52,154 bases of DNA from contig JABHRR010000075.1 of the NCBI GenBank assembly GCA_018670095.1, positions 1 through 52,154 on the forward strand, written 5' to 3'. A program made the position numbers and the translations under genes. Origin of the DNA: Candidatus Woesearchaeota archaeon. Lineage in GTDB: Archaea > Nanobdellota > Nanobdellia > Woesearchaeales > GW2011-AR9. This document shows positions 5,364 through 49,459 of the stretch, one piece after another. The stretch's first letter is position 1. Each line of letters opens with the position of its first letter. Below the pieces are notes generated by a model, which ran no database searches, was not told where the DNA came from, and saw only the letters and a program-made list of their open reading frames with translations.

Positions 5364-5402
5364 TCAGAAACATTTATTTACCCTTAAATTATTCTTCTTG
5401 AT

Positions 5403-9008: not shown

Positions 9009-10681
9009 AAATGTTAGAAAAAATACTTAATTGGAAAAATGTACTTGCAACCGGAGTAATGCTTGTTGGGTTGCCTAGTTGTGGTGGAGAAATAATTAAT
9101 AATTATTATCTTGATGCGGAAACTTATTCAACAGAAGAAATTACTGAACAAGAAGAGAAGGAAATAGAACTGGAATGTGAGAAAAAAGTTCTTTATGAGG
9201 ATAAAGATGGAGATTTGTTTGTTAATTGCAAGAATAAACCAAAGATTGTATGTCAAGGAGAATCACTTCCTGGCTATATTAAACTTTTTGCAGATTGTGA
9301 TTGTGACGACGAAGATCCTGAAGCAAATCCTAGTAAAACAGAATTATGTAATGGTTTAGATGATGATTGCAATGGGATTATTGATGGATCTGATGCAGGA
9401 CAGTCTTGTGAATCACCTTGTGAGCCTCCAGGCGTAAAAGCACTTAGAAATTGTATTGATGGAAAATTAGAAGAGTGTTCATTACAAATGCCTGCTCCCT
9501 ATGAAGTTTTAAATGGCGAGGATGACAATTGTGATGGTTCCTATGATGAAGGCGTTATCCTTTGGCAATTTTTAATTGATAAATGTACCCCAAATTCTAT
9601 TTCTGTTGCTCCTGAAGGAAATGTGTTGGTTCGAAGTGGAAAAGGTTGGCTATTCTCTTTAAACCCAGAAGGAGCAGATAGTGATAGAATTTTATGGGAA
9701 GCAAAAACTTATGGTTTGGGTAAAGACATGAATTTACCTTCCCCAATTGTATCTGGTGATGGAAGTGTTTATGTTGTTGGTGAAGACATTAAATTATTTG
9801 ATTCTTTAGGAAACCAAAAAGGGGAAAATAAAAAAACATATCTCTGTGCAGATGACGGCCCTTTTAGTCCTGAATTAAAAGGGGACATTTACGCTTCTCT
9901 TACTTTAGATAATTCTATTCTAATTGCTATGAGCTTATGGGAAGATGATCCAGTATTTGAAGATTATTGTGGTTATCTTGAGAAAGTTGTTGTTTCTGGA
10001 GATGGATGGTACAAAAACATGGGTTATGGGGTTAGGGGACCATCAATTGGTCAAGATAGCATGATTTATACTAGCAAAGGCACTTATGCTTTTGCCATTA
10101 ATCCAAACAATGGGGAAATAGCATGGCAAGTGAATCTTGGATTAGCTCCAAGCAGTGCTCCAGTTATTGGATTAAATGGTGCAATTTATTTTAAAAGTGG
10201 GAAAAAACTGATTGCTTTGAATTCAATACAAAAAGAAATTGGTTGGGAATTTCTTGCTGGAGGGAACATTGGGGATCCAGTAGTTGATTCTCAAGGAAAC
10301 ATTTATTTCGGTTCTGAGGACGGGAACTTTTATGCTATTAGCCCACAAAAACCAGATGAAACTATTTGGACAATCCCAAAACTGTTTACATTGAGGCCAG
10401 GGGTTATAACTGAAAGTGGATTGATTTATTTAAGTAAAGAGAATGGTCTTTTTGCCTATGATTTAGAAACTGGTGAGAAGCAATTTAAATTAACTGAAGG
10501 GAAAAATAATGAAACCTTAAATCCTCTTGCTTTAACAGTTGGTCCAGAAGGCAATATTTATTTTTGTAATCAAGATAATAATAGTGTTTATGCGGTAAAG
10601 GGGGAATCTCCTTTAGATAAAAACGCAGCTTGGCCGACTTGGCAACATGATTCACAACATACTGGGAATTTTAATAAATAA
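9005..10681 (+). CDS. Lipoprotein with Cys-rich repeat and PQQ/BamB-like beta-propeller
   Basis: ATGA overlap with the upstream gene. VGLPSCGG. DCDDEDPEANPSKTELCNGLDDDCNG. Repeated G.IY..S.DG..YA blades. Confidence 0.8.
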   Translation: MKMLEKILNWKNVLATGVMLVGLPSCGGEIINNYYLDAETYSTEEITEQEEKEIELECEKKVLYEDKDGDLFVNCKNKPKIVCQGESLPGYIKLFADCDCDDEDPEANPSKTELCNGLDDDCNGIIDGSDAGQSCESPCEPPGVKALRNCIDGKLEECSLQMPAPYEVLNGEDDNCDGSYDEGVILWQFLIDKCTPNSISVAPEGNVLVRSGKGWLFSLNPEGADSDRILWEAKTYGLGKDMNLPSPIVSGDGSVYVVGEDIKLFDSLGNQKGENKKTYLCADDGPFSPELKGDIYASLTLDNSILIAMSLWEDDPVFEDYCGYLEKVVVSGDGWYKNMGYGVRGPSIGQDSMIYTSKGTYAFAINPNNGEIAWQVNLGLAPSSAPVIGLNGAIYFKSGKKLIALNSIQKEIGWEFLAGGNIGDPVVDSQGNIYFGSEDGNFYAISPQKPDETIWTIPKLFTLRPGVITESGLIYLSKENGLFAYDLETGEKQFKLTEGKNNETLNPLALTVGPEGNIYFCNQDNNSVYAVKGESPLDKNAAWPTWQHDSQHTGNFNK

Positions 10682-10726: not shown

Positions 10727-11989
10727 ATGAGAAAAACTCTTACTACTTTATTATTTGCAGCTTGTGCAGCTTTGCCGTCATGCGATCTAGATAATAATTC
10801 TCCTCAAAATTATGATGAGAAAATAGCTCAGTTAGAACAACGTGTTGAATATTTAGAAAATCAAACTCCTTTAGTTGGTGAGCAAGGTCCTATTGGTTTA
10901 CAAGGAATACCTGGTTCTAAAGGAGATACTGGTTTGCAAGGAGAAACTGGCCCTCAAGGAACACCTGGTTCAGAAGGAGAACAAGGAATTCAGGGATACA
11001 AAGGTGATACTGGTTTACAAGGAGTTCCTGGGGAAAAAGGAGAAACTGGATTAACTGGTCCGCAAGGTCCAATGGGACTTATGGGTTTACAAGGGATTAA
11101 AGGGGATACAGGATTACAAGGATTTCAGGGAATTCAAGGACTTAAAGGTGATGTTGGTTCTCAAGGAATACCTGGTGAAAAAGGAGAACAAGGTATTCAG
11201 GGATACAAAGGTGATACTGGTTTGCAAGGAGAAGTAGGTCCGAAAGGTATTGCTGGAGAGATTGGTCCGAAAGGTGAACAGGGTTATCAAGGAATCCAAG
11301 GTCTAAAAGGAGATGCTGGATTACAAGGTCCTAAAGGAGAACAGGGATTAGAAGGTTTGATGGGCATTATGGGTCCACAAGGAATCCAGGGAGAAACTGG
11401 TATTCAAGGTCCACAGGGAGAACAAGGAATCCAAGGTTTAACTGGATTGACTGGACTAAAAGGAAACGCCGGACCTCAAGGGATCCAAGGAGAAATGGGA
11501 CCAACCGGACCATCACTAAAAATTTATGATTCTACAGGAGAACATATTGGATATATTCTTGGATGGAAAGATAGACTTGCAGGAAGTCCACTTACACCTG
11601 CTTTAGCTACCGTGTTTGATACAAATATTGACAGAATATATTACTTGGATATGTTATCTGGGAAACCAACTCTTGGTGTAAATGATGCGTGGACAGGTTT
11701 TTGGACGCAAATGCTTTATTATGTCTCTGATGATTGCACTGGTTCACCATTAATGGCAATAAATAATATTTATGATGTTTTTGCATTTGGACCTGATAGT
11801 AGTACTTTATTTACAATTAAACAAGATGCACAAATAGCAGACACTGTTGTTGGAAGTTATTTCTTAAAGAGTGGGGAACCAGGTATTTGTACACCATATG
11901 GTCCTAATGAGGTTTTAACAAATGCTGCTGAAATTGAACAAATCGTTTTACCAGAATACGTTGGTCCTTTACTTATTGTAGAAGAATAA
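10727..11989 (+). CDS. Collagen-like triple-helix repeat lipoprotein
   Basis: Lipobox AALPSCD, heptad coil EKIAQLEQRVEYLEN, 71 uninterrupted G-X-Y triplets, then a non-repetitive C-terminal domain of about 157 aa. Confidence 0.85.
   Translation: MRKTLTTLLFAACAALPSCDLDNNSPQNYDEKIAQLEQRVEYLENQTPLVGEQGPIGLQGIPGSKGDTGLQGETGPQGTPGSEGEQGIQGYKGDTGLQGVPGEKGETGLTGPQGPMGLMGLQGIKGDTGLQGFQGIQGLKGDVGSQGIPGEKGEQGIQGYKGDTGLQGEVGPKGIAGEIGPKGEQGYQGIQGLKGDAGLQGPKGEQGLEGLMGIMGPQGIQGETGIQGPQGEQGIQGLTGLTGLKGNAGPQGIQGEMGPTGPSLKIYDSTGEHIGYILGWKDRLAGSPLTPALATVFDTNIDRIYYLDMLSGKPTLGVNDAWTGFWTQMLYYVSDDCTGSPLMAINNIYDVFAFGPDSSTLFTIKQDAQIADTVVGSYFLKSGEPGICTPYGPNEVLTNAAEIEQIVLPEYVGPLLIVEE
10877..11515 (+). repeat. Coding G-X-Y triplet repeat (71 units), with about 48-nt near-identical internal DNA repeats
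   Basis: GEQGPIGLQG...GEMGPTGPS. The block GEQGIQGYKGDTGLQG occurs twice (about 10976 and about 11183) with near-identical DNA. Confidence 0.9.
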
Positions 11990-18835: not shown

Positions 18836-20446
18836 ATGAAAAAATATATTATTTTAATCACTATCTTATTATTACTTGTAATTAGTTCTAGTGGAGCTCT
18901 TGCAGGAAGTTATTCTGAATTGGAACCAATACAAAAACAATTTTATTGGAGTTGTATTAAAAGTGATTGTTTAGATTTTATTTATGCTAAACAATATGGT
19001 AAATGGAAAACTTGTGTCTCTGATTGTATCTCTAAAGCTGAAACAATTAAACCTATTCCTGTAGAAGAATTATTTTGTGAAGATACTGATAAAGGAATTG
19101 ATTACAAAAATTTCGGATCTGTAACTTCAAATAAATATCCTAACGGTAAAGATGATTTTTGTTATTCCGGAAATGGTAAGAGTTATGTTTTTGAAAGTGC
19201 TTGTAAAAATAATAAATATGTTCGTTATCAAAAGAATTGTAAAGAGTTAGGTCAAGCTTATTCTTGTATTGAAGGAGCTTGTGTGAATTCAGTTTGTGAT
19301 CTTCAAAATGTTGATAATGGGGTAGTGGCTGAGTTTCCAGATTGTGCCATTTCTTGTAATGAAGGTTATATTTTAGAAGATAATGTTTGTGTGAAACCCA
19401 ATGTTCCCCCGGTATTCGGATTATTTGATGTGACTCATGAAATTGCTGTAGCTGGAGAATTCACTATTGAAATAATTGCTACCGATGATGAAGTTTTAGA
19501 ATATTCTGCTGAAAATTTACCTGCAGGAGCAGAACTGAATGGAAATATCTTTACTTGGACTCCAGGAGAGAACCAACTTGGACTTTTTCAATTTAAGTTC
19601 ATTGTTACGGATGGAGAATTTACTATTGAAAAAACTGCTAAGGTTGAGGTGTTTCCTAATTTAGGATGTGACGGAATTGCTAAAAAGAAAGATTATTTTG
19701 GTTTAGATGGTCATTTATTCAAGTATCTGGATTCTGATAAAATATTTAATTCTAACCCTCAAGTAAAATTTAAAGATATTAATACGGGAGAACATATTGA
19801 ACGTGTAATTGGTGGGAATATAGATCAAGCATATTTTGATTTTAAATTTTATGGGAAAAAATACAATTTCGTAAGTGCTTCAGATCCAAGTATTAATGAT
19901 TGGGACATCATGTACAAATGTAATCATGCTCCTGTTTTAGATCCTATCGGAAACAAAAAAATTAAATTCGATCAAGAATTAGTTATTGAATTATCTGCAA
20001 CTGATGAAGATGGCGATCCGTTACAATATATTGTTGCTACAATGCCAGTGGGTGCAGAGCTTAATGGAAATATATTTACTTGGACACCAACAAAAGATCA
20101 AATAGGTGAATATCATGTCATGTTCATAGTTAGTGATGGAGAATTAGAGGATAGTGAAGTTGTTAAGATCTCTGAAGATTTAGAATGTGATGATATTGTT
20201 AAAGATAATGAATATTTTGTTTTGGACAACATTTTGTTACAATATAAAGGTGCAGATAAAAATACCGATACTAGTCCAAAAATAAAATTTAAAAATCTTA
20301 ACACAGGAGAAACTTTGGAATATTCCGTTAGTTTTGTTAATCAACAAGGATCTGTTACTTTAAAACTTGGTGGAAAAGTTTATGGGTTTGTAAGTGCTTC
20401 AGATACAGGCGTAGATGATTTTGACATCATGTACAAATGTGGTTGA
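18836..20446 (+). CDS. Secreted adhesin-like protein with Cys-rich N-terminus and two tandem repeats of about 174 aa
   Basis: Signal peptide. Repeats carry Ig/cadherin-like AELNGNIFTWTP...F(I)V(T/S)DGE and a module ending FVSASD...D(W/F)DIMYKC. Confidence 0.75.
   Translation: MKKYIILITILLLLVISSSGALAGSYSELEPIQKQFYWSCIKSDCLDFIYAKQYGKWKTCVSDCISKAETIKPIPVEELFCEDTDKGIDYKNFGSVTSNKYPNGKDDFCYSGNGKSYVFESACKNNKYVRYQKNCKELGQAYSCIEGACVNSVCDLQNVDNGVVAEFPDCAISCNEGYILEDNVCVKPNVPPVFGLFDVTHEIAVAGEFTIEIIATDDEVLEYSAENLPAGAELNGNIFTWTPGENQLGLFQFKFIVTDGEFTIEKTAKVEVFPNLGCDGIAKKKDYFGLDGHLFKYLDSDKIFNSNPQVKFKDINTGEHIERVIGGNIDQAYFDFKFYGKKYNFVSASDPSINDWDIMYKCNHAPVLDPIGNKKIKFDQELVIELSATDEDGDPLQYIVATMPVGAELNGNIFTWTPTKDQIGEYHVMFIVSDGELEDSEVVKISEDLECDDIVKDNEYFVLDNILLQYKGADKNTDTSPKIKFKNLNTGETLEYSVSFVNQQGSVTLKLGGKVYGFVSASDTGVDDFDIMYKCG
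19400..20443 (+). repeat. Intragenic tandem duplication (2 x about 522 nt)
   Basis: Residues 189-362 align with residues 363-536 along their whole length. Confidence 0.8.
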
Positions 20447-31537: not shown

Positions 31538-31643
31538 CGCCACCACCCGGATTTGAACCGGGAATTCCATAAGGAACTGGTTATCAAGACTTGCTATAAA
31601 CAAGTTTCAAGACCAGCGCAATACCGGATTATGCGACAGTGGC
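31538..31643 (-). tRNA. tRNA-Ser(UGA) with 23-nt intron
   Basis: Acceptor GCCACTG/TGGTGGC. Anticodon stem CTGGT/ACCAG, loop CTTGAAA. Long variable arm TTCCTTATGGAATT. T-arm CCCGG-TTCAAAT-CCGGG, G73, then CTTTTC. No encoded CCA. Confidence 0.8.
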
Positions 31644-36526: not shown

Positions 36527-36644
36527 AGCCCCTGGTGGGAATTGCACCCACGACCTTCAGCTGTCTGAAATCAAAAATTTCTGAGCAAATCTCACTCAGT
36601 TCGATTTTACAAGGCTGACGCAATAGCTACTATGCTACAGAGGC
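36527..36644 (-). tRNA. tRNA-Thr(UGU) with 45-nt intron at 37/38
   Basis: Acceptor GCCTCTG/CAGGGGC. D-arm GCAT-AGTAGCTA-TTGC. Anticodon stem TCAGC/GCTGA, loop CTTGTAA. T-arm GTGGG-TGCAATT-CCCAC, U73, then CTTTTT. Confidence 0.8.
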
Positions 36645-37250
36645 ATTAATCCTTTTGATATGATAAGGGTTAGAAGATCCAATTAATTCTCTCCATTTTA
36701 AAACTTTCTGTTTTCCGAAGATTGTTACCCTAAAAGCATCTTGGATTTCTCCTTTGCTTTTACAAATATAAGCACCAAAATCAAACTCATTTAGTAGTTC
36801 TTGAACTTGAAGTGCCAAATTTTTACTAATAGTAGTTATTGCAATAACAGGATACTTGTTTCTTTGTAAGTGAATACTTCCATCAGTATCAAATATACCT
36901 TTTATCAATCCTAATTTGCATTCTTTAGTTGTGATTAATGATTTTGGAATTGTAATTTGGCCTTTTTTTCCTACTGGAAAATTAAGTTGATTTTTCAATG
37001 TTTCAAAAATCTCTTTAGAATAGATTGTTAATCTCAAACAATTCTTTTGTTCATAAATATGTGTTTTTGTTTTAAATATATTATTAATTAGGGGTTCAAG
37101 ATGTTTATAATAATATTCTTTATCATTAATTTTATGGCCTGTTATTTGAATCATTTTTGTTGTTCTTCCATAAGAACCAATAAAACCATCTCCAATAAGA
37201 ACACCAATAAACTCAGCAAGTTTTGGACATTTTAGGTTTAAATTTATCAT
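36630..37250 (-). CDS. Double-motif LAGLIDADG homing endonuclease (free-standing)
   Basis: LAEFIGVLIGDGFIG and LIKGIFDTDGSIH. The last 15 nt, including the TAG stop, are positions 1-15 of tRNA-Thr. Confidence 0.8.
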   Translation of the reverse strand: MINLNLKCPKLAEFIGVLIGDGFIGSYGRTTKMIQITGHKINDKEYYYKHLEPLINNIFKTKTHIYEQKNCLRLTIYSKEIFETLKNQLNFPVGKKGQITIPKSLITTKECKLGLIKGIFDTDGSIHLQRNKYPVIAITTISKNLALQVQELLNEFDFGAYICKSKGEIQDAFRVTIFGKQKVLKWRELIGSSNPYHIKRINASVA

Positions 37251-38322: not shown

Positions 38323-39000
38323 ATGAAAATGTCTGGTTTTAAAATGGATGCAGAAATTGCTTACTTTATTGGAGTTCTTCACTCCGATGGTTGTATTTAT
38401 CGTTTTAATGATAAAAAAAGAAAGAGGATACAAATACGGTTAAACTTAACCATTGGTCAGAAATCATTACCTATGGCTTCAGAATTTAAGAGAATATTAT
38501 TTAAGCGATTTGGTAGGACAGTTAATATCAGAAAAGTCCCTAACAAGATTTCTTATATGGTTCAAACATCTATTAATAGGCTTTATTGGTTATTTAAACA
38601 ATGGGAAGACAAATCTATTCCTTTCATTATTTCAAATGACTCCGTTCTTTTTGGATCTTACTTGGCAGGAATCATAGATGGTGATGGTTATGTGAAGCTT
38701 AAGAAACGAGATGGTAAAACTTTCGCATGTCAAATTAAAATATCTGCTGGTTATATTCACTATCAATTATTGGAACAAATAAAATTCCACTTGGGTTGTG
38801 GAGCACATATAGAAAAAGATGTTAATAAAAAAGGGATGGGTTACAGCCATTGTTTTCTTATTTCAAAAAAGAATTATCGATATATTCAGCATTTAATCTT
38901 GCCTTACATAAAAATGCCTTATAAAAAAGAAAGAATTAAAGAATATATAAAAAAATGGGCCTACAGGGATTCGAACCCTGATTTCGGCCATAATCAATAA
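38323..39000 (+). CDS. Double-motif LAGLIDADG homing endonuclease (free-standing)
   Basis: IAYFIGVLHSDGCIY and YLAGIIDGDGYVK. The last 45 nt are antisense to the 3' part of the tRNA gene at 38956..39097. Confidence 0.75.
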   Translation: MKMSGFKMDAEIAYFIGVLHSDGCIYRFNDKKRKRIQIRLNLTIGQKSLPMASEFKRILFKRFGRTVNIRKVPNKISYMVQTSINRLYWLFKQWEDKSIPFIISNDSVLFGSYLAGIIDGDGYVKLKKRDGKTFACQIKISAGYIHYQLLEQIKFHLGCGAHIEKDVNKKGMGYSHCFLISKKNYRYIQHLILPYIKMPYKKERIKEYIKKWAYRDSNPDFGHNQ

Positions 39001-41313: not shown

Positions 41314-41324
41314 CTCGCTAAAGG
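41314..41324 (+). promoter_or_regulatory. CTCGCTAAAGG box 1
   Basis: Exact 11-mer 19 nt upstream of ATG 41343. Hairpin ATGAGG-N6-CCTCAT at 41290-41307. Confidence 0.65.
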
Positions 41325-41342: not shown

Positions 41343-41810
41343 ATGTTGGGGTGGAAAGAGAAGCTAAATCAAACAGAGGAAAATGTTTCCTTAGAAACAA
41401 TTGCAACTCTCCAAGATCGGAAGTATGAGCGGTTAGCAGTTTATTCAGATATCGCTGCCGCTGGAGGATTTACAGTTGCTCTAGCTGCTTGTGACACTTT
41501 CCCCTATAACATTTTCTTGGGATTGGGTTTAGCTGTTTCCGGAATGAGTGCAATCATGGGGGACAAATATTCTAACCAAGACTCTGTTGAAGTTATTAAA
41601 AAATTTCAACCTGTAGCAGGGACATTAGCAGCATGTCTTGCAACAGGATATTATTTCCTCGGTGATAATCAAATGGGTACAGTCATGGCTGGCTTGTCTT
41701 TAGCTTGCTATACTTCAACTCTTGCTAATATTCTTCGGGGAAAAAAAGAAACTGATGACCCTCAGTATCGGGGACTAGTGGGGATCCTAAATAAAAATGA
41801 CCCAGATTGA
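41343..41810 (+). CDS. Gly/Ala-rich membrane protein
   Basis: 3-4 hydrophobic helices. 155 aa. Confidence 0.55.
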   Translation: MLGWKEKLNQTEENVSLETIATLQDRKYERLAVYSDIAAAGGFTVALAACDTFPYNIFLGLGLAVSGMSAIMGDKYSNQDSVEVIKKFQPVAGTLAACLATGYYFLGDNQMGTVMAGLSLACYTSTLANILRGKKETDDPQYRGLVGILNKNDPD

Positions 41811-41846: not shown

Positions 41847-41857
41847 CTCGCTAAAGG
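41847..41857 (+). promoter_or_regulatory. CTCGCTAAAGG box 2
   Basis: Exact 11-mer. Its 3' end runs into aggtgat (SD-like), 9 nt before ATG 41866. Confidence 0.65.
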
Positions 41858-41865
41858 TGATTTGA

Positions 41866-42750
41866 ATGAAAAAAAAACTAATTAACTTAATTGCGGCAAC
41901 AACACTTCTTTCTGCTACAGGATCTGCTTGTGTGCCTATGCAATTTGTTTCTGTAGATAATTATGGTTCTGCTCAATATTCTGAAGAAAATATAACTTTA
42001 GAAAATCTTATTTCTTCAACGTACTGTTTGCTTTCAGAGAGAGATTATAGTGATAACGCTGGCAATACTTTTAATGAGGGTGGATACGGTTCCAGTTTTG
42101 CTTTTCGCCAAGTTGATGGCTATTCATATTTAATTACTAATCAACATGTTGTTGGAGAGTTAGAACAAAATCTTAATGGGAAAATATACAATCGAAATAA
42201 TGTCAATATCAAAATAATCGATTCAAAATTTGACAATAATAAAGATGATGATATCCCTTTAGAAATTGTTTTTGAATCAAAAGAGTTAGATATGGCTATT
42301 CTCAGAACAGAACAGAAACTAAATTTCCTTCCTGAAAAAAATATTCAATTAAGTTCCGATTTAAAGTACGGCGAAGAAGTTTATTTGGTTGGTTACCCTT
42401 TAGGAATGTTTCCTGCCGTAACTGAAGGTATTGTTTCCAATCCGGGACTTTACCCTTTCCATTATGAATTTGAAGATAAAGTAAATGGTTTAACCGTACC
42501 AAATTCTTCCAGAAAAGTTTTGGACCTTTCAGCAAATCCCGGAAATTCTGGTGGCCCTTTATTTGTAAAAAAAGATCATCAATTATACTGGGCAGGAATT
42601 ATTAGTGCTTATTTTATTCACGGTGCCGGCGGTCCTTTCTATAAAGAAAACTCTGGACTAGCCATTGCGATGGACTCTAACATTATCAAAGATATTGCCG
42701 ATTATATAATTATGAATATTGATGACTACATTGGGGAATGTAAAATGTAG
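41866..42750 (+). CDS. Secreted/lipoprotein trypsin-like (S1) serine protease
   Basis: LLSATGSAC. Triad contexts TNQHVV, LDMAILR and GNSGGPLF. No PDZ seen. Confidence 0.8.
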   Translation: MKKKLINLIAATTLLSATGSACVPMQFVSVDNYGSAQYSEENITLENLISSTYCLLSERDYSDNAGNTFNEGGYGSSFAFRQVDGYSYLITNQHVVGELEQNLNGKIYNRNNVNIKIIDSKFDNNKDDDIPLEIVFESKELDMAILRTEQKLNFLPEKNIQLSSDLKYGEEVYLVGYPLGMFPAVTEGIVSNPGLYPFHYEFEDKVNGLTVPNSSRKVLDLSANPGNSGGPLFVKKDHQLYWAGIISAYFIHGAGGPFYKENSGLAIAMDSNIIKDIADYIIMNIDDYIGECKM

Positions 42751-42756
42751 ACTTTG

Positions 42757-42805
42757 GTCCTGCCGTTTTATCCCACCCTGGGAACGCTAAAGGTTACGGC
42801 AGGAC
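42757..42805. repeat. Perfect 10-bp GC-rich inverted repeat GTCCTGCCGT-N29-ACGGCAGGAC followed by T5
   Basis: Read directly. The spacer contains CCCAcccTGGG and a degenerate box aCGCTAAAGG (42784-42793). Confidence 0.7.
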
Positions 42806-42813
42806 TTTTTAAT

Positions 42814-42824
42814 CTCGCTAAAGG
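42814..42824 (+). promoter_or_regulatory. CTCGCTAAAGG box 3
   Basis: Exact 11-mer 3 nt before ATG 42828. Confidence 0.65.
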
Positions 42825-42827
42825 AAA

Positions 42828-43064
42828 ATGACTCTAGACAAAAAGTTTGAGCAACAGTTAACTGATTTTCCTAGATTCTACAAAATAAATTGTAACGGGT
42901 GCGAGGGAGAAATTGAGTATGTGCAGCAACTAAGAAACGAATCGGAGAAATATAATTTTCGTTATGAGTATGCTTGCACTGATTGTGGTTTGATAACTGA
43001 TTATCGAGAAATGAAAAACGAACTGCAATCAAAATGGCCGTATAACATTATTTGGGGGAAATAA
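42828..43064 (+). CDS. Zinc-ribbon protein (operon gene 1)
   Basis: CNGCEGE...CTDCG. Confidence 0.55.
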   Translation: MTLDKKFEQQLTDFPRFYKINCNGCEGEIEYVQQLRNESEKYNFRYEYACTDCGLITDYREMKNELQSKWPYNIIWGK

Positions 43065-43065
43065 A

Positions 43066-43884
43066 ATGGGAGAACTATCTGATAAAATTAAAGAATGGGA
43101 ATCAATGAAAAAGGCTGCTGCAAAAAATGAGTTAAAGCCAACACTGAATTATCAAAAGTTTGATGTTGATAAACTAAGTATCATGCTTCTTGGAGACGAA
43201 CATATCGGTTCAAGATATTATGATAAAGATATGCATCAAGAAGTTTTGGAACATTGTTTTGAGAACAAAATTCCAATAATCTTGATGGGTGACCAATTAG
43301 AAACTGCTACCAGAGATTCTGTTGGTTCTGGAGTTTATGAACAAGACGAAATACTTGAACAACAATTGGAACATTTTATGCATCTTTACAAGCCGTTAGC
43401 AGAAAATGGATTAGTTCTTGGCTTGCATCCCGGGAATCATGAAAATCGTGTTTATAATCAAGCGGGATTAAATCTATCTAAAATCATGGCTAAACAATTA
43501 GACGTGCCATATTTCGGTTGGGGAAAGATGCATTATTTCCTTGTAGGAAAGCAGGGTTATACTATCTACACCACGCATGGTGCTTCTGGCGCAAGAATGC
43601 CGCACACCAAAATTAAAGGGGTAATAGATCTTGCCAATTTAGCGGAAGCAGAAATTTATGCGATGGGCCATTTGCATCAGCTGAGTCATCATGTGAAGAA
43701 CTTCTACTCTGCAGATTTAAGAAATAAAAAAGTTATCGAAGCGCAGAAACATTTCATTCTTACTGGTTCTTACTTGAACCATTGGGGAAGTTATGCGCAT
43801 ATGAAATCTCTGGAGCCGATGCGAAAAGGTAGTCCAATATTGAAACTAAATGGAGATAAACATGAAATCCGGGTGAGTTTATGA
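43066..43884 (+). CDS. Calcineurin-like metallophosphoesterase (operon gene 2)
   Basis: GDEHIG, GDQLE, GNHENR, TTHG, GHLHQ. TAAAATG junction. Confidence 0.8.
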   Translation: MGELSDKIKEWESMKKAAAKNELKPTLNYQKFDVDKLSIMLLGDEHIGSRYYDKDMHQEVLEHCFENKIPIILMGDQLETATRDSVGSGVYEQDEILEQQLEHFMHLYKPLAENGLVLGLHPGNHENRVYNQAGLNLSKIMAKQLDVPYFGWGKMHYFLVGKQGYTIYTTHGASGARMPHTKIKGVIDLANLAEAEIYAMGHLHQLSHHVKNFYSADLRNKKVIEAQKHFILTGSYLNHWGSYAHMKSLEPMRKGSPILKLNGDKHEIRVSL

Positions 43885-44180
43885 GCAGAGAAAAAACTAA
43901 AAGAGAGATAGAAGAACCTTTAACTACGCGCTTAACAGAAGGGATTACTAATTGTCTCGTTAAAAAGAATTATCAGGGTGATGGTTATGATAAACAAGGG
44001 AATTTGGTACATTATTGTGCTTTCTTTAATGTTAGTAACCAATATCAACCAATGGATTGTGGTTTTCGCGGCGAGCAATTAGAAATTCTTGTTGGTGATA
44101 AAAGGGAACTGAACCATCATTATCTTTCTTTTTACAAATGTTGTAACATCAAAAATAAAAAAAAGAGGTGGCGTAGATGA
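43881..44180 (+). CDS. Hypothetical Cys-containing protein (operon gene 3)
   Basis: ATGA overlap with gene 2. 99 aa with a basic tail KNKKKRWRR. Confidence 0.5.
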   Translation: MSREKTKREIEEPLTTRLTEGITNCLVKKNYQGDGYDKQGNLVHYCAFFNVSNQYQPMDCGFRGEQLEILVGDKRELNHHYLSFYKCCNIKNKKKRWRR

Positions 44181-44386
44181 ACGAATACAAATCTTTGCAA
44201 GAAGTTGTTGAGGAGTTTCATTACCTTAACGTTCCTGTAAAAACTGAACTTGGAGAAATGGATGTGTCTTTGGATTATGATGAATTTACAACTTACCTTT
44301 TTAGTGAAGAAAAAGGCTGTCAATATTTTCCTGATGGCAACGTCTACATTTTCTCTGCTAAAAAGTATTTGGAGAATGATCATTAA
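44177..44386 (+). CDS. Hypothetical acidic protein (operon gene 4)
   Basis: ATGA overlap with gene 3. 69 aa. Confidence 0.45.
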   Translation: MNEYKSLQEVVEEFHYLNVPVKTELGEMDVSLDYDEFTTYLFSEEKGCQYFPDGNVYIFSAKKYLENDH

Positions 44387-44388
44387 AA

Positions 44389-44493
44389 ATGGGACGTAAA
44401 AAGAAATGGATGCAATGGTACGACTACTTGTCTCCTGCAGAAGAAGGTAAAAGAAAAAAAAGGGTGAAAAAAAATGACTCGCAAAAAGAATAA
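44389..44493 (+). CDS. Possible 34-aa basic peptide (operon gene 5, below ORF-track cutoff)
   Basis: ATG 2 nt after the previous stop. MGRKKKWMQWYDYLSPAEEGKRKKRVKKNDSQKE*. Overlaps the next start by 20 nt. Confidence 0.3.
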   Translation: MGRKKKWMQWYDYLSPAEEGKRKKRVKKNDSQKE

Positions 44494-44791
44494 ACATGAC
44501 CAAGCTGTAGATGAACTTGAACTTTTAGTTAGAGACCAATACCAAATTGTGATGAAAAATGTTGTTTATCGCATGCCACCTTCTCGAAGAGATTCCGGAG
44601 AATTAGATTTGGTAGGAATTAACGGTGATTGTTGGGATATTTATGAAGTAAAATCTAATGATGGTTATCAGAAAGCAGTAAGTCAAATGGAACGTGCTTA
44701 TTTGTTATTAAGTGATTGTGCTCAAATTTGTACGTTTTATTATTCCGGTAAGGAGAAAAAAATTATTCCTATACATTATTCTAAAAACTAA
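44474..44791 (+). CDS. PD-(D/E)XK-like (Hjc/YraN-type) nuclease-fold protein (operon gene 6)
   Basis: GELDLVGINGDCWDIYEVKS gives an E..D...E.K pattern. Weak assignment. Confidence 0.5.
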   Translation: MTRKKNKHDQAVDELELLVRDQYQIVMKNVVYRMPPSRRDSGELDLVGINGDCWDIYEVKSNDGYQKAVSQMERAYLLLSDCAQICTFYYSGKEKKIIPIHYSKN

Positions 44792-44794
44792 AAA

Positions 44795-45919
44795 ATGGCT
44801 AACTCTAAAAAGAAGAGAAAGAAAAAGAACAAAGAAAAAGAGGAAGAAGACTTAGAAGATTTAGGGGATTTAGATGATTTATTTATAGAAGAAGATGATG
44901 AAATGTCAGATGAGGAAGCGAAAAAGTTTGTTAAAAGTATTGCCGATAAATTATACGTTCAAGAACAGGTTATTGAAGGACAAAGAAAAATTATTGAAAA
45001 ATACCAACAACAAATTGATCAATTATCTCAACCCTCTTCTTCATTAAAAATTGCTTTAAGTCAAGAAGAAACTTCTTATGCAGACATTGGTGGGTTAGAT
45101 TCAGTTTTAGAAAAAATAAAACATTTTGAGTATGGGATTGATTGCCCTTATGCTTATTCTTCATATGGGATTGATCCTCCGAAAGGATTGTTGATGTATG
45201 GCCCTCCCGGTACTGGGAAAACGATGATTGCTAAAGCGATGTCGAACGAACTTGGTTGTTGGTTTTTAGAATTGCCGTTAAGTTTGATTATCAGCAAATA
45301 TGTGGGGGAGGCAGAACAAAATTTGGAAGCGGTAATAGAATCTGCGAAAAAGAAATATCATCAAACAGATCGGAAAGTAATGTTGTTTGTTGATGAAGCA
45401 GAACAGATGTTTAGAAAGAAAGGTAGCCATAATGGCCACGAAGTTGTTGATCGCTGTGTTAACGTTTGGCTGAGAACAATGGATGGCATGGGCAGTAATG
45501 AGGGATTGATCTTTGTTGCCGCTACTAATTACTTAGAAAAGATTGACGACGCTTTACTTCGTGCAGGAAGATTTGATTATGTTGTTGAGATACCTAAACC
45601 TAACTTATCTGGAGTAGAAGATATTTTTATGAAACAAATAAACATTAAAGAAAAGAAAGCGAATAGAGAAATCTATTCTCTTACTAATTTAGAAGGTTTA
45701 TCTGAAATGATGTATGCTTGCAGAATGACCGGCGCAGATATTGCCAATGTTTTGAAACAAGCATCATTTAACCAAATTCAATATTTCATGCAATCTGCTG
45801 CTAGTGGCAAACCAATGTGTAAAGAAGAATTAATGATTCGTGACCAAGATTTGATTAAAGTCATTAGTTTATATGATCGAGTTAAAGAAGAGAAGAAGTT
45901 CGTTGGCTTTAACGTTTGA
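44795..45919 (+). CDS. Classic-clade AAA+ ATPase, single module (operon gene 7)
   Basis: GPPGTGKT, MLFVDEAE, ATNYLEKIDDALLRAGRFD. Highly charged N-terminus KKKRKKKNKEKEEEDLEDL. Confidence 0.85.
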   Translation: MANSKKKRKKKNKEKEEEDLEDLGDLDDLFIEEDDEMSDEEAKKFVKSIADKLYVQEQVIEGQRKIIEKYQQQIDQLSQPSSSLKIALSQEETSYADIGGLDSVLEKIKHFEYGIDCPYAYSSYGIDPPKGLLMYGPPGTGKTMIAKAMSNELGCWFLELPLSLIISKYVGEAEQNLEAVIESAKKKYHQTDRKVMLFVDEAEQMFRKKGSHNGHEVVDRCVNVWLRTMDGMGSNEGLIFVAATNYLEKIDDALLRAGRFDYVVEIPKPNLSGVEDIFMKQINIKEKKANREIYSLTNLEGLSEMMYACRMTGADIANVLKQASFNQIQYFMQSAASGKPMCKEELMIRDQDLIKVISLYDRVKEEKKFVGFNV

Positions 45920-46121: not shown

Positions 46122-46132
46122 CTCGCTAAAGG
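46122..46132 (+). promoter_or_regulatory. CTCGCTAAAGG box 4
   Basis: Exact 11-mer 2 nt before an ATGGTT that stops after 2 codons. The real ORF, also starting ATGGTT, begins 64 nt later. Confidence 0.6.
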
Positions 46133-46198: not shown

Positions 46199-48472
46199 AT
46201 GGTTCCCAGACAAAAAAGACAAAAAAGAATAAAACATCTAGATGAAATAATTTTAGATTCATTAAAAGATTTATCCAGGACCTTACCTCCGGAACCTCAT
46301 CCAAAATTAATCCAAATTTTTGATTATGCTGCTACTCATCCGCCAAAGAAAAGATATAATGATTATTTTTCTTCTGTTAATCAGTTAGCAATTAATCTTT
46401 CTGATTACGAACGGTTAAAGAACGAGTTTGCCGAAAGTGTTGATTGGGCTTATGGTATTTTTTTATCTTGGGTTCATGATGCTGAGGATTCAAAAGTAAA
46501 TTATGATTCACAATCTTTGGTTAATGATATTGATTCATCTTTAGAGGGAATAAAGAAAGCGTTAACTTTACAGGGAAATTCTGAGGAAGTACAATCATTC
46601 TTAACAGAAATAAATGGCAGATTAAAAAATCCTATTTTTCCGCCCCAGTTTACTCGCCTGGGAGAGATTGCTACAGAAACTTCTTATGTCTACAGAAGTT
46701 GTGTTGTTGAGAAAGGTAATCCAGAAACTTATCAATTATGGGAACAATTTCGGAGAAAGTTTGTCATGGGAACATACCCAGAAGTAGTTTCTGCTTTAGC
46801 AAAATTGCCCCGTTATGTGCCCTCATCACTAACAACATTTATTTCTGATGCTATTGAAAATATTGGTGATGCTGAACATTTAACAGAACTAATGAGGACC
46901 ATATCTGAACATTATCATTTGTTTAACAATAAAGAGATTAACAATTTCCTAAATGGAATCAATAAACAATATCCTGCCACTGCTGAAATGGCAGTTAAAC
47001 AACTTAATCAAAGAATGCAATTTCGCGCTTCTGAGAAAGAAATTCTTGCTAGAGAAATCGAAGAAACTAGTGAAAAAATTTATCTTTTAGAATTGGATGA
47101 TCCAGAACCCTACATCCGTAAAAAAGAACATGATATCTCTCTTAGTTTAGGTCCAGAGAAAGCATACGAATTTAAAAAAAATGTTAGGATCTTTGAAGAT
47201 GTTGGTATTGGCAGTTTAACTACTTTTATGAACCTTTATTGTAAATTTTTAGAGAAAAAACTTTCTGAAGAAGATGAACGACATTTTGGTTCGATGTTGG
47301 GAAGTTTAAGTGTTTATTCTAAAAGGAAACAAGAAAATAAAACTATCCTAGATAATATTTTAAGTAAAGGCCCTACTAAAATAAATTCTTCGTTAAGAAA
47401 GAAACTTAAAACAGAATACGATGCAGAAATAACTCATGTTTGGGATTTAAGACCATTACAAGCAAATCTTTATTCAACTTATCATGCTTTTGCTAATTAT
47501 CAAGAGGTAGTCAATCGGAAATTTGAAAATAAGAAATATACTGGGTTTCTTGATTTCTTATTAGAAAAAGATTATTTAGAAGAAGATATTTTAGTTGTTG
47601 CTGGCGGTTGTGGTTTGGCTAAAAAGGAAAGTTTGTTAGTTAAACGACTTAGAGAAGAAGACAATCGTCAAGCAGAACTTTTATTGATTGACAGAAATGA
47701 ACAAGTTACAAATTTGGCTTTGTTACATTGTGTTCAAGAAGGACTTTATGATCTTTCCGATTTGCCACCGGTACTTAACATTGATCTCACTAAAATTTCT
47801 CCAGAACATTTCAAAGAACTTCGAGATTTAATGGATCGACAAATCTTGCTTACTATGTTTGGTGGAACTCCATTTAACCAACCGAACATGTGGGAAATGT
47901 ATGCCCGGGAAAGAGACATTTTTGCACTGCGAAAGTATGGTCCTCATTATGACCAAAATATCTTCACAAGAACATCTGCCTGGATAAAAAGTTTAATCGC
48001 TGAAGAAAGATGGATGATTAAAGTAAGAGAACATGCCAATAAACCAGATTTGTTAATCACAGAAGGAGATTCACGAAAAGATTTGAGTTATTATTGTCAG
48101 CCATCTTCAATTGAATTTTTGAATAAAGGTATCGCTAATCGTTATCAAATCTATCCAGACGATTTGTTATCAAAAAACCCTTTAATTACAATTGATGATA
48201 GTGAACAAAAAATGAAATCGTTTTATTTGGTTCGGGAAGATCACCATTTAAACAAGAATATTCATCCTAACGCTCAAGCCATTTTAGTTATTGATTCCGG
48301 AACTTTAGATGAAGATAAATTTAATAGCATGATGGCCAACATTGGCTGGCAGAATGATTTCTTTTATCATGAAAATTCAATTATTGCTGTTAGTCAAGTA
48401 GCTAAACCAGTGAGGCCATATTTGGGATTGAGGCATTTCGTTTCAGATCATGATTTAATTAGCAGAACTTAA
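46199..48472 (+). CDS. 757-aa protein: unknown N-terminal part of about 440 aa plus SAM-methyltransferase-like (EgtD/Methyltransf_33-like) C-terminal half
   Basis: VVAGGCGLAKKESLL, ELLLIDRNE and LTMFGGTPFNQPN recall ELGxGxxxK...GSTIGNF. Confidence 0.65.
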   Translation: MVPRQKRQKRIKHLDEIILDSLKDLSRTLPPEPHPKLIQIFDYAATHPPKKRYNDYFSSVNQLAINLSDYERLKNEFAESVDWAYGIFLSWVHDAEDSKVNYDSQSLVNDIDSSLEGIKKALTLQGNSEEVQSFLTEINGRLKNPIFPPQFTRLGEIATETSYVYRSCVVEKGNPETYQLWEQFRRKFVMGTYPEVVSALAKLPRYVPSSLTTFISDAIENIGDAEHLTELMRTISEHYHLFNNKEINNFLNGINKQYPATAEMAVKQLNQRMQFRASEKEILAREIEETSEKIYLLELDDPEPYIRKKEHDISLSLGPEKAYEFKKNVRIFEDVGIGSLTTFMNLYCKFLEKKLSEEDERHFGSMLGSLSVYSKRKQENKTILDNILSKGPTKINSSLRKKLKTEYDAEITHVWDLRPLQANLYSTYHAFANYQEVVNRKFENKKYTGFLDFLLEKDYLEEDILVVAGGCGLAKKESLLVKRLREEDNRQAELLLIDRNEQVTNLALLHCVQEGLYDLSDLPPVLNIDLTKISPEHFKELRDLMDRQILLTMFGGTPFNQPNMWEMYARERDIFALRKYGPHYDQNIFTRTSAWIKSLIAEERWMIKVREHANKPDLLITEGDSRKDLSYYCQPSSIEFLNKGIANRYQIYPDDLLSKNPLITIDDSEQKMKSFYLVREDHHLNKNIHPNAQAILVIDSGTLDEDKFNSMMANIGWQNDFFYHENSIIAVSQVAKPVRPYLGLRHFVSDHDLISRT

Positions 48473-49459
48473 TTATTTGATTTTCTTAATCTCTGGGAAA
48501 TAATCTACAACATATTCTTTATTAACAACAACTGTTCTGTAATGTCTAATTAATTGCCCAAAATTTCTTCTTAACTCTTTTAGATTTTTTCTTAACTCGC
48601 TACTACTTCTAACCTGAACTTCAAACTCTAAATCTGACCTCCCAATCGCTTCCGTAACGTAAGTTACGTTTCTGTTCAGTTTCAGATATTCTTTTAATCT
48701 TAATCTTACTCTGGGATTAACGTCAGCCAATTTTATAAATATTTTATAATTCTGATAACCTAATTGGCCAGTATCAATCTTTGGCCTGAAACCCACAATA
48801 ACCTTCTTTTCTTTCAAGTTTTTTATTCTCTGCTTGATTGTGTTTGGGGCTACGTTAAGTTTGTTAGCCATGTTTAATAGCGGTTCTCTGGCGTTCTTAG
48901 AAAGAAACCATAATATTTGCAAGTCTGTGTTATCTAAACAAACAGTTTTAGTTTTACCACCAATAACTCTCTCTAAAAGATCATTCTGATCATAAATGTA
49001 ATTGTTCATGTAATGATGAATTTGTGTTATAATGGTAACAAAACTATCTTGGAAATAACTGCCGTGCTTTTCTAAAATTTGATCAAAAATTTCTTTGAAC
49101 TCAAAAACATTTTTTGCCCAAATTAATACTGCTAAATCGTACGTTTCTTCTAGAAGAATTACCCATCCTACAGATTTTAAATTTCTAAGAAAATGTAAGA
49201 TTTCTTTTTCTTTCTCAATGTCAACACCTTGAAATCTGATAAAAACTCGAAAGACCATATATCCTAATTTTGAATTGTCAATGATTGCATAAAAACTTCT
49301 GATAATTTTTTGGTCAACTAACCTTTTAATTCTGTAATTGACCACTTCTTTTGATAATCTTGTCTTTTTAGCGATGATTGAGTTTGCTTGTCTGGCATCT
49401 TGATCGAGGCAGTACAAAATAGCTTTATCTTTTGCATCAAGACTAGAAGTAGTGGGCAT
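48473..49459 (-). CDS. Tandem (fused double) Lrp/AsnC-family regulator
   Basis: Two HTH units, DKAILYCLDQDARQANSIIAKKTRLSKEVVNYRIKRLVDQKII and DLQILWFLSKNAREPLLNMANKLNVAPNTIKQRIKNLKEKKVI, each followed by a RAM-like region. Confidence 0.8.
   Translation of the reverse strand: MPTTSSLDAKDKAILYCLDQDARQANSIIAKKTRLSKEVVNYRIKRLVDQKIIRSFYAIIDNSKLGYMVFRVFIRFQGVDIEKEKEILHFLRNLKSVGWVILLEETYDLAVLIWAKNVFEFKEIFDQILEKHGSYFQDSFVTIITQIHHYMNNYIYDQNDLLERVIGGKTKTVCLDNTDLQILWFLSKNAREPLLNMANKLNVAPNTIKQRIKNLKEKKVIVGFRPKIDTGQLGYQNYKIFIKLADVNPRVRLRLKEYLKLNRNVTYVTEAIGRSDLEFEVQVRSSSELRKNLKELRRNFGQLIRHYRTVVVNKEYVVDYFPEIKKIK

Follow-up and report, generated by a model that had tools for sequence, protein, structure and literature searches.

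Why would the chromosome of a marine archaeon keep, in one tightly packed operon, the genes of two candidate nucleases and of an ATPase related to protein unfoldases, and why do genes of the same families lie next to each other in tailed viruses? The question is raised by a 52,154-nucleotide contig of a Candidatus Woesearchaeota archaeon (assembly GCA_018670095.1, contig JABHRR010000075.1, positions 1 to 52,154; hereafter the window), in which seven genes at positions 42,828 to 45,919 encode a metallophosphoesterase (MPE), a 105-aa protein of the PD-(D/E)XK nuclease superfamily, a single-module AAA ATPase and four small proteins. Comparison with related loci revealed a durable core of four genes, namely those of an MPE of the phage family phrog_7339, a PD-(D/E)XK endonuclease of about 100 aa, a classic AAA and an exported protease, usually with an AsnC-type regulator alongside. 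We read the block as virus-shared and most likely virus-captured DNA-processing genes that became fixed in the chromosome, are co-regulated via a short sequence box and handle incoming DNA in the cell; this is a tentative proposal, in which our doubt slightly outweighs our belief. While the comparative signal is solid, the function is conjecture, and most of the uncertainty lies in the biological role.

The seven genes follow each other on the same strand almost without spacing. In order, their junctions are a 1-nt gap (43064/43066), an ATGA overlap at 43881, a second one at 44177, a 2-nt gap (44386/44389), a 20-nt overlap (44474-44493) and a 3-nt gap (44791/44795), all of them reproducing what an earlier, sequence-only reading of the locus had listed. 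In the rest of the window, neighbours on the same strand come this close (3 nt or less) in only eight of 35 pairs, and six junctions of this kind in series are therefore unusual (crudely 0.23^6, about 1e-4). Shine-Dalgarno-like motifs (GGTGA, GAGGTG or GGGGGA) are located 5-12 nt upstream of five of the six internal starts; the AAA start is the sole one lacking such a motif, and translation of this gene may depend on re-initiation. The idea of a functional operon would have suffered if the small open reading frames (ORFs) were untranslated. All seven ORFs, however, showed purifying selection, with ratios of non-synonymous to synonymous substitution rates (dN/dS) of 0.03-0.25 against orthologues at 57-96% protein identity, which identifies the 78-, 99-, 69- and 34-aa ORFs as real genes. 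Within the block, constraint is strongest on the MPE (dN/dS 0.03-0.05). Public gene callers also predict the small ORFs, though the 34-aa ORF is missed on some contigs. A 123-aa ORF in antisense direction (44132-44503, minus strand), spanning the 99-, 69- and 34-aa genes and open in relatives too, most likely owes its existence to codon usage in the AT-rich coding sequence and is not a gene.

Whether the operon is a unit beyond this single genome was judged from about 20 distinct loci (designated here by L numbers), compared without a formal null model. Near-identical and related loci were found in metagenome-assembled genomes (MAGs) of Candidatus Woesearchaeota or Nanoarchaeota, many of them from marine oxygen-minimum zones. 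Close relatives, with MPEs 92-99% identical to that of the window, keep the order h150(-), membrane protein, protease, Zn-ribbon protein, MPE, (99), 69, 34, nuclease, AAA, 757-aa protein, AsnC-type regulator(-) and ArgRS(-); in some of them, the 99-aa gene is swapped for another small ORF. A first arrangement, protease-Zn-MPE-small ORFs-nuclease-AAA, is that of the window, L014-L019 and L101-L108. A second one, in L009 (MPE 72% identical), consists of membrane protein, protease, an unrelated 113-aa protein, MPE, unrelated 90- and 192-aa proteins, a 34-aa ORF, nuclease and AAA. At the same chromosomal place, L026 (AAA 58%, ArgRS 55% identical) displays a third, with membrane protein, protease, a divergent phrog_7339 MPE, a 71-aa homologue of the 69-aa protein, a 110-aa protein and AAA, the nuclease being missing. 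The fourth and commonest arrangement, protease-~800aa-AAA-x-nuclease-HTH (L030, L111, L112 and L115), has variants in L114, in which no nuclease-sized gene was called, and in L116, which has no adjacent protease. In a fifth, protease, nuclease and AAA follow each other and the MPE is absent (L109), and in the genome type of L022/L028 AAA and nuclease are found beside TruD, with protease-x-MPE-...-757-aa homologue-AsnC 9 kb away. For L026, a non-orthologous replacement of the MPE had been considered, as tblastn missed the gene, but hhalign and PHROGs identified it as a divergent member of phrog_7339; its 110-aa gene before the AAA was likewise tried as a PD-(D/E)XK homologue and rejected, the product looking like a membrane protein.

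Judged from these gene maps, changes of order have not broken the linkage of MPE, small nuclease, AAA and exported protease, to which the Zn-ribbon protein and the tiny ORFs do not belong. The nuclease gene adjoins the AAA gene in the window, L009, L028, L030, L109-L112 and L115, and in nine of 12 clustered cellular loci and in eight viral loci the MPE has a protease homologue no more than about 1 kb away. The AAA forms an orthologous group in Woesearchaeota/Nanoarchaeota at 41-97% identity. Homologues of the 155-aa membrane protein precede the protease in L009, L014, L016-L018 and L026 (dN/dS 0.04-0.15), a gene of the AsnC/HTH_24 type flanks the block in L009, L022, L026, L030, L114 and L115, and the block keeps its chromosomal neighbours, the AsnC regulator and ArgRS, even where ArgRS is only 55% identical. 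The co-occurrence of MPE, small nuclease and AAA, proposed as a check by the sequence-only reading, was thus found in several lineages and in different orders. Its picture of seven genes forming one unit had to be given up, since relatives have unrelated small genes in place of the Zn-ribbon gene and the three tiny ORFs and since AAA and nuclease are separated from protease and MPE by 9 kb in one genome type; the secreted protease, which it had taken for a mere neighbour, belongs to the conserved set and is encoded just upstream of the reported coordinates.

In the commonest arrangement, the position of the MPE is taken by a protein of about 790-800 aa (L030 4613-6985, L114 3596-6001, L115 3620-6001, L116 3083-5473, L111 and L112), and the stop of its gene overlaps the AAA start. 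Its C-terminal half contains, invariant and in order, SDEHIG, GGD, the loop TNDAMGGSVESM, GNH, H and GHTH, corresponding to the five MPE motifs and the family-specific loop. Alignment with the MPE gave an E-value of 0.003 in hhalign and colinear blocks of 4-11 bits in hmmsearch. The protein had no database match, and its N-terminal half of about 450 aa is without any assignment. We consider it a putative, probable though unproven MPE. Homology between this protein and the 757-aa protein of the window was rejected, as BLASTP shows no similarity.

The link to viruses, suggested already by the sequence-only reading, was confirmed by IMG/VR contigs of tailed viruses, in which the same families adjoin one another. 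Deposited phage genomes yielded 22 tblastn matches to the MPE, including Bacillus phages Slash, Stahl and Staley, Moorella MTATph1, where the MPE gene is located between TerL and portal, viruses of Marinitoga and Geobacillus, and the archaeal Caudoviricetes vir520 and vir249. IMG/VR contributed 65 contigs with an MPE, at up to 60% identity. The viral loci were mapped by clustering of flanking ORFs and annotation of representatives. In 19 of 58 loci, TerL, portal or major capsid genes could be recognised no more than 6 kb from the MPE, and in eight of 58 a trypsin-fold protease is encoded within 1 kb. A viral family of about 780 aa, chained into the MPE cluster by single-linkage clustering, was rejected as MPE because Pfam identified portal and Mu-F domains. 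For example, L037 reads MPE-protease-80aa-AAA-156aa-TerL-164aa-portal, L035 TerL-portal/MuF-MPE-80aa-protease-91aa-331aa-capsid, and L050 protease-MPE-TerL-portal...capsid; MPE and nuclease are neighbours in L039, and L100 contains TerL, an MPE-like gene, nuclease and portal. Even the 99-aa protein has viral counterparts, directly after the MPE in L044 and two small ORFs later in L053. In L033, the MPE gene is found beside an intein-containing PolB and NrdD, with an ABC-type ATPase encoded two genes upstream.

In a neighbour-joining tree without support values, the MPE clade of the window is placed inside the viral radiation, and other cellular copies are scattered among viral ones. One contig filed as cellular (L011) carries its MPE three genes after TerL amid dozens of tiny ORFs and is evidently a provirus. 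Because the same families adjoin in contigs of head-tailed viruses and the cellular MPE clade nests among viral ones, we regard the block as a DNA-processing module shared between viruses and hosts, which was most likely captured from a virus and then fixed in the chromosome.

Several features of the viral loci were noted in passing. The region 3705-14410 of L033 encodes an anaerobic ribonucleotide reductase (NrdD), the ABC-type ATPase, the MPE, an intein-split PolB and a second, divergent MPE. The viral MPE genes at 5639-7453 of L050 and 6855-8669 of L051 contain an insertion of about 300 aa that keeps the reading frame and lengthens the product to 604 aa; no Pfam Hint domain was detected in the insertion, Hint-annotated phage proteins in BFVD match the MPE model structurally, and an intein is possible. 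Between the viral AAA and TerL of L037, a 156-aa ORF (5188-5658) displays a HEASH motif (HExxH-like) and may encode a small metalloprotease, with no family match.

The MPE itself matches phrog_7339, labelled 'DNA repair exonuclease', over its full length (E 5.1e-39, residues 6-267 against profile positions 3-255 of 263), as do the divergent copies in L026, L100 and L113, while Pfam and a sequence search of the PDB gave zero matches. To our knowledge, the label of this widespread phage family has no experimental basis. Motifs I-V (D44/H46, G75/D76, G123/N124/H125, H171 and G201/H202/H204) are invariant in 20 homologues, and so is a family-specific loop, T-x-RDSVGAGVYEQ. The AlphaFold2 (AF2) model (pLDDT 82) has PolD DP1 proofreading exonuclease and Mre11 as best Foldseek matches in the PDB (E 1e-5, TM-score up to 0.57) and is far nearer to predicted viral MPEs in BFVD (E 5e-16, TM-score 0.73-0.76). 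With the five motifs in order and the matching fold of the model, the protein belongs to the calcineurin-like metallophosphoesterase superfamily, and we predict it to be a candidate nuclease of the Mre11/DP1 type. It shares the five motifs with Mre11/SbcD and PolD DP1, its best structural matches in the PDB (E 1e-5 to 1e-4). Unlike these, however, it has no Rad50/SbcC or DP2 partner and no evident capping or OB domains in its 272 aa, and TM-scores reach only about 0.5-0.57 at 11-14% identity; no ABC/SMC ATPase is encoded in the operon or among the scanned neighbours. The phage MPEs of phrog_7339 are of about the same size, and their genes are often near terminase or portal. The gene of the window differs in its setting, being part of a cellular chromosome, with no packaging genes around it and with the genes of a PD-(D/E)XK nuclease and an AAA in the same operon. 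The phage family thereby gains a context: packaging or replication modules, a protease as frequent partner and a nuclease as occasional one.

For the 105-aa protein, an exhaustive HMMER search uncovered about 165 representative clusters of relatives of about 100 aa. Among 50 diverse homologues, five residues never vary (D45, E58, K60, A68 and Q71), and H8 and E43 are almost invariant. The AF2 model (pLDDT 94) displays an alpha-beta-beta-beta-alpha-beta core (helix 7-22, strands 25-33, 40-50 and 53-60, helix 65-79, strand 84-91), and its top Foldseek matches are all PD-(D/E)XK nucleases: R2 RLE, AddA, Cas4/ACE1, UPF0102 (3fov), AF1548 and Can2. Fold and catalytic residues place it in the PD-(D/E)XK superfamily, and we are confident that it is a nuclease of this kind with intact catalytic residues, the activity being predicted. 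Profile matches to Can2, VC1899, UPF0102, NucS and Cas4 were weak. In Pfam it remained below the thresholds, with UPF0102 (PF02021) at E 0.094 and 13.5 bits versus 23.6 and no match to Hjc (PF01870), and among 50 relatives UPF0102 was weakly matched by eight and Hjc by one; membership in the Hjc or YraN-UPF0102 family was rejected on these curated thresholds. With these families it shares a core of about 100 aa of the same topology and the pattern GE(I/L)DL...(Y)EVK, but it forms a separate family of its own. No match was found in INPHARED phages.

The AAA protein was matched by Pfam PF00004 (E 2.5e-33, residues 132-267), and GPPGTGKT, FVDEAE (hhhhDE), KYVGE and the second region of homology (SRH) ATNYLEKIDDALLRAGRFD are all legible, so that it is a classic AAA. 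Its best matches in the PDB are VAT/CDC48/p97 (E 7e-74, summed over two domains) and PAN (3e-35). Measured in bits against the NCBIfam cut-offs, it scored 159/500 with PAN (PRK03992), 129/750 with Pan1, 159/803 with CDC48 (TIGR01243), 116/650 with CdvC and 89/510 with IteA (NF042959). An identity as PAN was rejected, as scores are far below cut-off and the C-terminus, ...FVGFNV, is by eye not HbYX; CDC48/VAT was rejected because of the single module in 374 aa and the low score, and CdvC on scores and architecture. With CDC48/VAT and PAN the protein has in common the AAA module, the pore loop and the SRH and, with PAN, the N-terminal coiled coil, which is predicted; unlike them, it has a single module, no CDC48 N-domain and no HbYX tail by eye. 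Among classic AAA proteins, an aromatic-hydrophobic-Gly pore loop is the hallmark of protein-threading unfoldases. Owing to its KYVGE loop, we assign the protein to the protein unfoldase type of CDC48 and PAN, not to DNA motors. A tblastn search of phage genomes with this protein gave FtsH-like genes alone.

The enzymatic parts that the sequence-only reading had recognised are thus what it took them for: the complete five-motif calcineurin-type phosphoesterase, with an MPE fold in the model; the E..D...E.K pattern of the small protein, invariant or nearly so among homologues and set in a PD-(D/E)XK fold; and the single-module classic AAA+ with Walker A, Walker B and SRH. Its designation as a nucleic-acid-targeting module is too narrow, since the AAA is of the protein-unfoldase type and the module is therefore not purely directed at nucleic acids.

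The fourth part of the core, the protease, was matched by Pfam Trypsin_2 (E 2e-15), and its NCBIfam matches to HtrA/DegP were all below cut-off. Its export is predicted from the N-terminal signal. Viral proteases (L034-L037, L050/L051 and L023) have twin-arginine-like N-termini, RR(D/E)F(L/F) followed by a hydrophobic stretch, while cellular ones have Sec-type signals with a lipobox-like Cys. In a tailed archaeal virus, an exported protease could, from such signals, be an envelope-breaching (lysis) enzyme.

A further bond between these genes is the box CTCGCTAAAGG, noted before as peculiar to the region. Its four exact copies, versus 0.39 expected, are all located in 41.3-46.2 kb and none elsewhere in the 52 kb. 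Copy 1 is kept at orthologous sites in L009, L014, L016 and L017, an equivalent of copy 3 precedes the first operon gene in L009 and L014-L018, and copy 4 is kept in L016-L019 and retained in L026 although the 757-aa gene is absent there. In its general form, AAYCTCGCTAAAGG, the box recurs at corresponding intergenic sites in L009, where the AsnC-like gene has a copy in front of it as well, and in L014-L019 and L026; L030 has it once. A short GC-rich hairpin, the sequence of which differs between copies, comes before several of them. As box and start are anything between 4 and 67 nt apart in the window, a plain Shine-Dalgarno sequence and a standard TATA/BRE element are both ruled out, and no Rfam family matches the region. 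An operator, a leader or a processing site are candidates for its role, and the AsnC-type regulator is, by its persistent adjacency only, a candidate regulator of the box-marked genes. The separate hairpin between protease gene and operon, which may be a terminator or attenuator, holds the 9-mer CGCTAAAGG in its loop (42785-42793), and a similar hairpin is found in L014.

If the parts of this virus-shared block act together, the small endonuclease would nick, open or resolve DNA and the MPE would trim the resulting ends. The AAA hexamer would thread a protein through its YVG pore, which may be a bound inhibitor, a small operon protein or a DNA-bound protein, and would in this way gate the nucleases or clear their way. 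Membrane protein and protease would act at the envelope, and the units sharing the AAYCTCGCTAAAGG box would probably be switched together by the adjacent regulator. In a virus, such a set would be used for genome maturation and egress; in the cell, its most likely task would be the destruction or processing of DNA coming in, viral or scavenged, and we infer foreign-DNA exclusion, DNA salvage or repair as cellular roles. The phage nuclease pairs T7 gp3 endonuclease I and gp6 exonuclease, or T4 gp49 and gp46/47, mature concatemers and break down host DNA. By analogy, these pairs also combine a small PD-(D/E)XK-type endonuclease with an exonuclease (an MPE in T4) around replication and packaging; the relation is at superfamily level only, however, the phage pairs come without AAA unfoldase or exported protease, and the set described here is kept in a cellular chromosome.

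Several points weigh against this explanation. The nuclease activities, the substrate of the AAA and a physical complex are all inferred, and we know of no established partnership of a classic AAA unfoldase with nucleases. With TM-scores to Mre11 and DP1 of no more than about 0.5-0.57, the substrates of the MPE could be nucleotides or other phosphoesters instead of DNA. The tree is without support values, and a transfer from cell to virus is possible. Viral homologues of protease and AAA are only 26-27% identical to the cellular ones. In the commonest arrangement, motif order and weak scores are what points to an MPE in the ~800-aa protein. Finally, DPANN genomes are small and rearrange slowly, and part of the conserved linkage may be due to inheritance, not function.

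The genes lend themselves to a bolder explanation as well, an undescribed four-part machine common to Woesearchaeota, related DPANN archaea and their head-tailed viruses, which is possible but in our view unlikely. Here, the viral protease with its Tat signal would breach a proteinaceous envelope, as an archaeal counterpart of endolysins, and the nucleases would mature or scavenge DNA; the domesticated copy of the cell would either open a host archaeon's envelope and break down the DNA so acquired to salvage its nucleotides, or it would be a nuclease gated by the unfoldase that excludes superinfecting viruses.

A dedicated, undescribed anti-virus or anti-plasmid defence system is an improbable candidate too, though a natural one, since two nucleases and an ATPase are a typical defence composition. 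The AAA would be the sensor or switch, the two nucleases would as effectors attack DNA of the invader or of the cell itself (abortive infection), and the protease would be a second effector. The best PADLOC match of the AAA is IetA (1e-29), the protease matches the LmuA-protease and RT-protease models, genes shared with viruses often serve in exclusion, and the variable small ORFs resemble fast-changing accessory genes. These PADLOC matches, however, reflect generic domain similarity, the IteA score of 89 bits being lower than the 159 obtained with the PAN or CDC48 models, and the protease is exported and has a trypsin fold while IetS has a subtilisin fold. Like IetAS, the locus has a classic-type AAA and a serine protease in one neighbourhood; its protease, though, has a signal peptide and is encoded six genes from the AAA, and Iet lacks the two nucleases. 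In PADLOC-DB v2, generic AAA (IetA, TRIP13) and Trypsin_2 (LmuA-protease, RT-protease) matches were the only ones, and MPE, nuclease and small ORFs matched nothing; membership in Iet or Lamassu was rejected on scores and architecture (PADLOC, NCBIfam). The block is at the same place beside AsnC regulator and ArgRS where housekeeping proteins are only 55-60% identical, and fixed position and strong purifying selection argue for vertical, core-like inheritance, not for the patchy distribution of defence islands. Restriction-modification, CRISPR or other defence genes were not seen among the scanned neighbours: a defence-island setting, one of the outcomes envisaged by the sequence-only reading, is not what surrounds the block.

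Its statement that no named defence system or housekeeping pathway has this composition has held, as PADLOC, Pfam and NCBIfam offer no family or system that would explain the set. By its predicted proteins, it matches none of Mre11-Rad50(-HerA-NurA), SbcCD, IetAS, Lamassu, McrBC or the systems of PADLOC v2, and no description of the gene set was found in the literature searched. Every core part is of a known superfamily, the MPE of a named but uncharacterised phage family, and the whole appears as a virus-derived nuclease module kept by the cell. Since no new mechanism has been demonstrated, the set is not categorically new. DPANN archaea have tiny genomes, most of their conserved lineage-specific genes are uncharacterised, and their viruses are little known. 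What we have here is a concrete gene set with clear enzymatic parts, retained in several orders in cells and also carried by tailed viruses. If the parts work together, they would represent a new coupling of a protein unfoldase to nucleases, and, if true, a testable candidate for the handling of foreign DNA and the breaching of protein envelopes by DPANN archaea or their viruses.

A lineage-specific housekeeping machine for DNA repair or recombination, a reduced analogue of the archaeal Mre11-Rad50-HerA-NurA end-resection operon, we consider quite improbable. The MPE model is nearest to Mre11 and PolD DP1 in the PDB, the block is stably and syntenically inherited across lineages under strong purifying selection, and DPANN genomes are reduced and may use minimal substitutes. 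As in the herA-mre11-rad50-nurA operon, an MPE nuclease, a ring ATPase and a second nuclease would be encoded together. Here, however, the place of HerA is taken by a classic AAA with a protein-threading loop, which is not a DNA translocase of the FtsK/HerA or RecA type, and that of NurA by a PD-(D/E)XK protein; no homologue of Rad50/SbcC, HerA or NurA is encoded in the block. The MPE family is overwhelmingly viral, and repair gives no reason for the presence of an exported protease and a membrane protein among the conserved genes marked by the box.

That the linkage is largely historical is very unlikely. In this case, protease, membrane protein and AAA would form an envelope or proteostasis regulon, with the two nucleases as passengers of viral origin, which would suit the resemblance of the protease to HtrA/DegP (below cut-off), the unfoldase type of the AAA, the box in front of the membrane-protein and protease genes, and L109, where protease, nuclease and AAA occur without MPE. 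The nuclease, on the other hand, stays by the AAA through inversions of gene order, even apart from the protease (L028, L030 and L109-L112), the MPE stays by the protease in cells and viruses, and the putative MPE gene of the ~800-aa arrangement overlaps the AAA start.

We regard as scarcely credible, and largely refuted, both a provirus remnant in decay and the second possibility raised by the sequence-only reading, a cryptic virus or plasmid with this operon as its replication/recombination core. Five of the eight genes from protease to AAA do have homologues next to the MPE in viral contigs, and the GC content of the region is slightly above that of its surroundings. The chromosomal position, however, is the same across species, dN/dS values of 0.03-0.25 are incompatible with decay, and in viruses these genes are accessory to packaging or replication modules and not a replication core. 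A scan of 36-50 kb, of the other large ORFs and of part of the small ones revealed no integrase, capsid, terminase, portal or replication gene/initiator, and there are no att-like direct repeats in 35.5-50.2 kb.

The operon sits in the chromosome of an uncultured marine Woesearchaeota (DPANN) archaeon. The window has a GC content of about 32% and encodes EF-2, EF-1alpha, aCPSF1/FttA, ArgRS, RecQ and a TrmB regulator, as expected of a cellular archaeal chromosome. The features of the locus are listed in the table.

Table. Genes, boxes and hairpin of the block and its flanks, in positions of the window.
Feature	Position	Strand	Characteristics
Box copy 1, (AAY)CTCGCTAAAGG	41314-41324	+	19 nt upstream of membrane-protein gene; short hairpin before box
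155-aa predicted membrane protein, no family assigned	41343-41810	+	First gene of conserved neighbourhood
Box copy 2, CTCGCTAAAGG	41847-41857	+	Runs into GGTGAT Shine-Dalgarno-like motif, 8 nt before protease start
Trypsin-fold serine protease, predicted exported, HtrA-like without PDZ	41866-42750	+	Signal peptide ends at lipobox-like Cys (LLSATGSAC)
Hairpin GTCCTGCCGT ... ACGGCAGGAC then TTTTT	42757-42810	+	10-bp stem; between protease gene and operon
Box copy 3, CTCGCTAAAGG	42814-42824	+	4 nt before first operon start codon
78-aa CxxC...CxxC protein, probable zinc ribbon	42828-43064	+	Zn_ribbon_8, Lar and FmdB matches weak, below cut-off
272-aa MPE	43066-43884	+	Phage family phrog_7339; predicted nuclease type (Mre11/SbcD/PolD-DP1-like)
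99-aa protein, fold unassigned	43881-44180	+	Variable; dN/dS 0.14-0.19
69-aa protein, fold unassigned	44177-44386	+	Accompanies MPE; weak DUF6472 match (E 0.004); dN/dS 0.05-0.25
34-aa basic peptide	44389-44493	+	Overlaps nuclease gene by 20 nt; dN/dS 0.07-0.19
105-aa minimal PD-(D/E)XK endonuclease (predicted)	44474-44791	+	Pattern E43, D45, E58-x-K60, Q71
374-aa single-module classic AAA	44795-45919	+	Lys-rich then acidic N-terminus, predicted coiled coil, Walker A/B, KYVGE pore loop 1, SRH
Box copy 4, CTCGCTAAAGG	46122-46132	+	Hairpin before box; 67 nt upstream of 757-aa gene
757-aa protein, no family assigned	46199-48472	+	Conserved VVAGGCG...LLIDRN (Rossmann-like) motif
Double winged-helix AsnC-type regulator	48473-49459	-	Pfam HTH_24/HTH_AsnC-type, twice; converges on block

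The small proteins of the operon are much less widespread than its enzymes, and the matches of the Zn-ribbon protein and the small ORFs in Pfam and NCBIfam are all below threshold. Orthologues of the 78-aa protein are confined to close relatives (L014-L018 and L101-L108; dN/dS 0.09-0.12), and in L009 and L022 its place is taken by an unrelated gene of 103-113 aa. Of the zinc ribbon with four Cys residues proposed from the sequence, the CxxC...CxxC arrangement is present, but the Zn-ribbon profiles remain below threshold. The 99-aa protein has homologues in L014, L015, L019 and L020 besides the viral L044 and L053 and is absent from L016-L018 and L009. A homologue of the 69-aa protein, 45% identical, follows the MPE in L026, and in L022 the 105-aa ORF downstream of the MPE has a C-terminal motif that, by eye, resembles that of the 69-aa protein. 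A 34-aa ORF is found at the equivalent position in L009. The giant ORF downstream, encoding 757 aa, had been described as methyltransferase-like, for which Pfam, PHROGs, NCBIfam and the PDB offer no support; it had zero matches there or in PADLOC, and the VVAGGCG...LLIDRN motif alone was seen. It has homologues in L016-L019 and L102-L108, and L022 encodes one of 26% identity downstream of its MPE.

Some of the taxonomic labels of the related loci are unexpected. The MAGs of L014, L015, L019, L020 and L021, loci with MPEs 72-95% identical to those of Woesearchaeota loci, are filed as 'uncultured Methanosarcinales archaeon', and that of L024, 57% identical, is filed as 'Ectothiorhodospiraceae bacterium'. 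Such labels are probably placeholder taxonomy or stem from mis-binned contigs.

Elsewhere in the window, two tRNA genes (36527-36644 and 31538-31643, both on the minus strand) with lengths of 106-118 nt probably contain introns; they were detected with Rfam and not with ARAGORN. A LAGLIDADG-type ORF (36630-37250, minus strand) abuts the first of them with an overlap of 15 nt, and a second LAGLIDADG ORF (38323-39000, plus strand) is found 1.7 kb away. At 10727-11989, 7923-10681 and 18836-20446 (all on the plus strand), a collagen triple-helix-repeat protein (Pfam E 4e-36) is encoded beside VWA/MopE-motif, beta-propeller and Ig-domain proteins. This cluster looks like surface or adhesion genes, which is unusual in an archaeon and perhaps relevant to an episymbiotic lifestyle.

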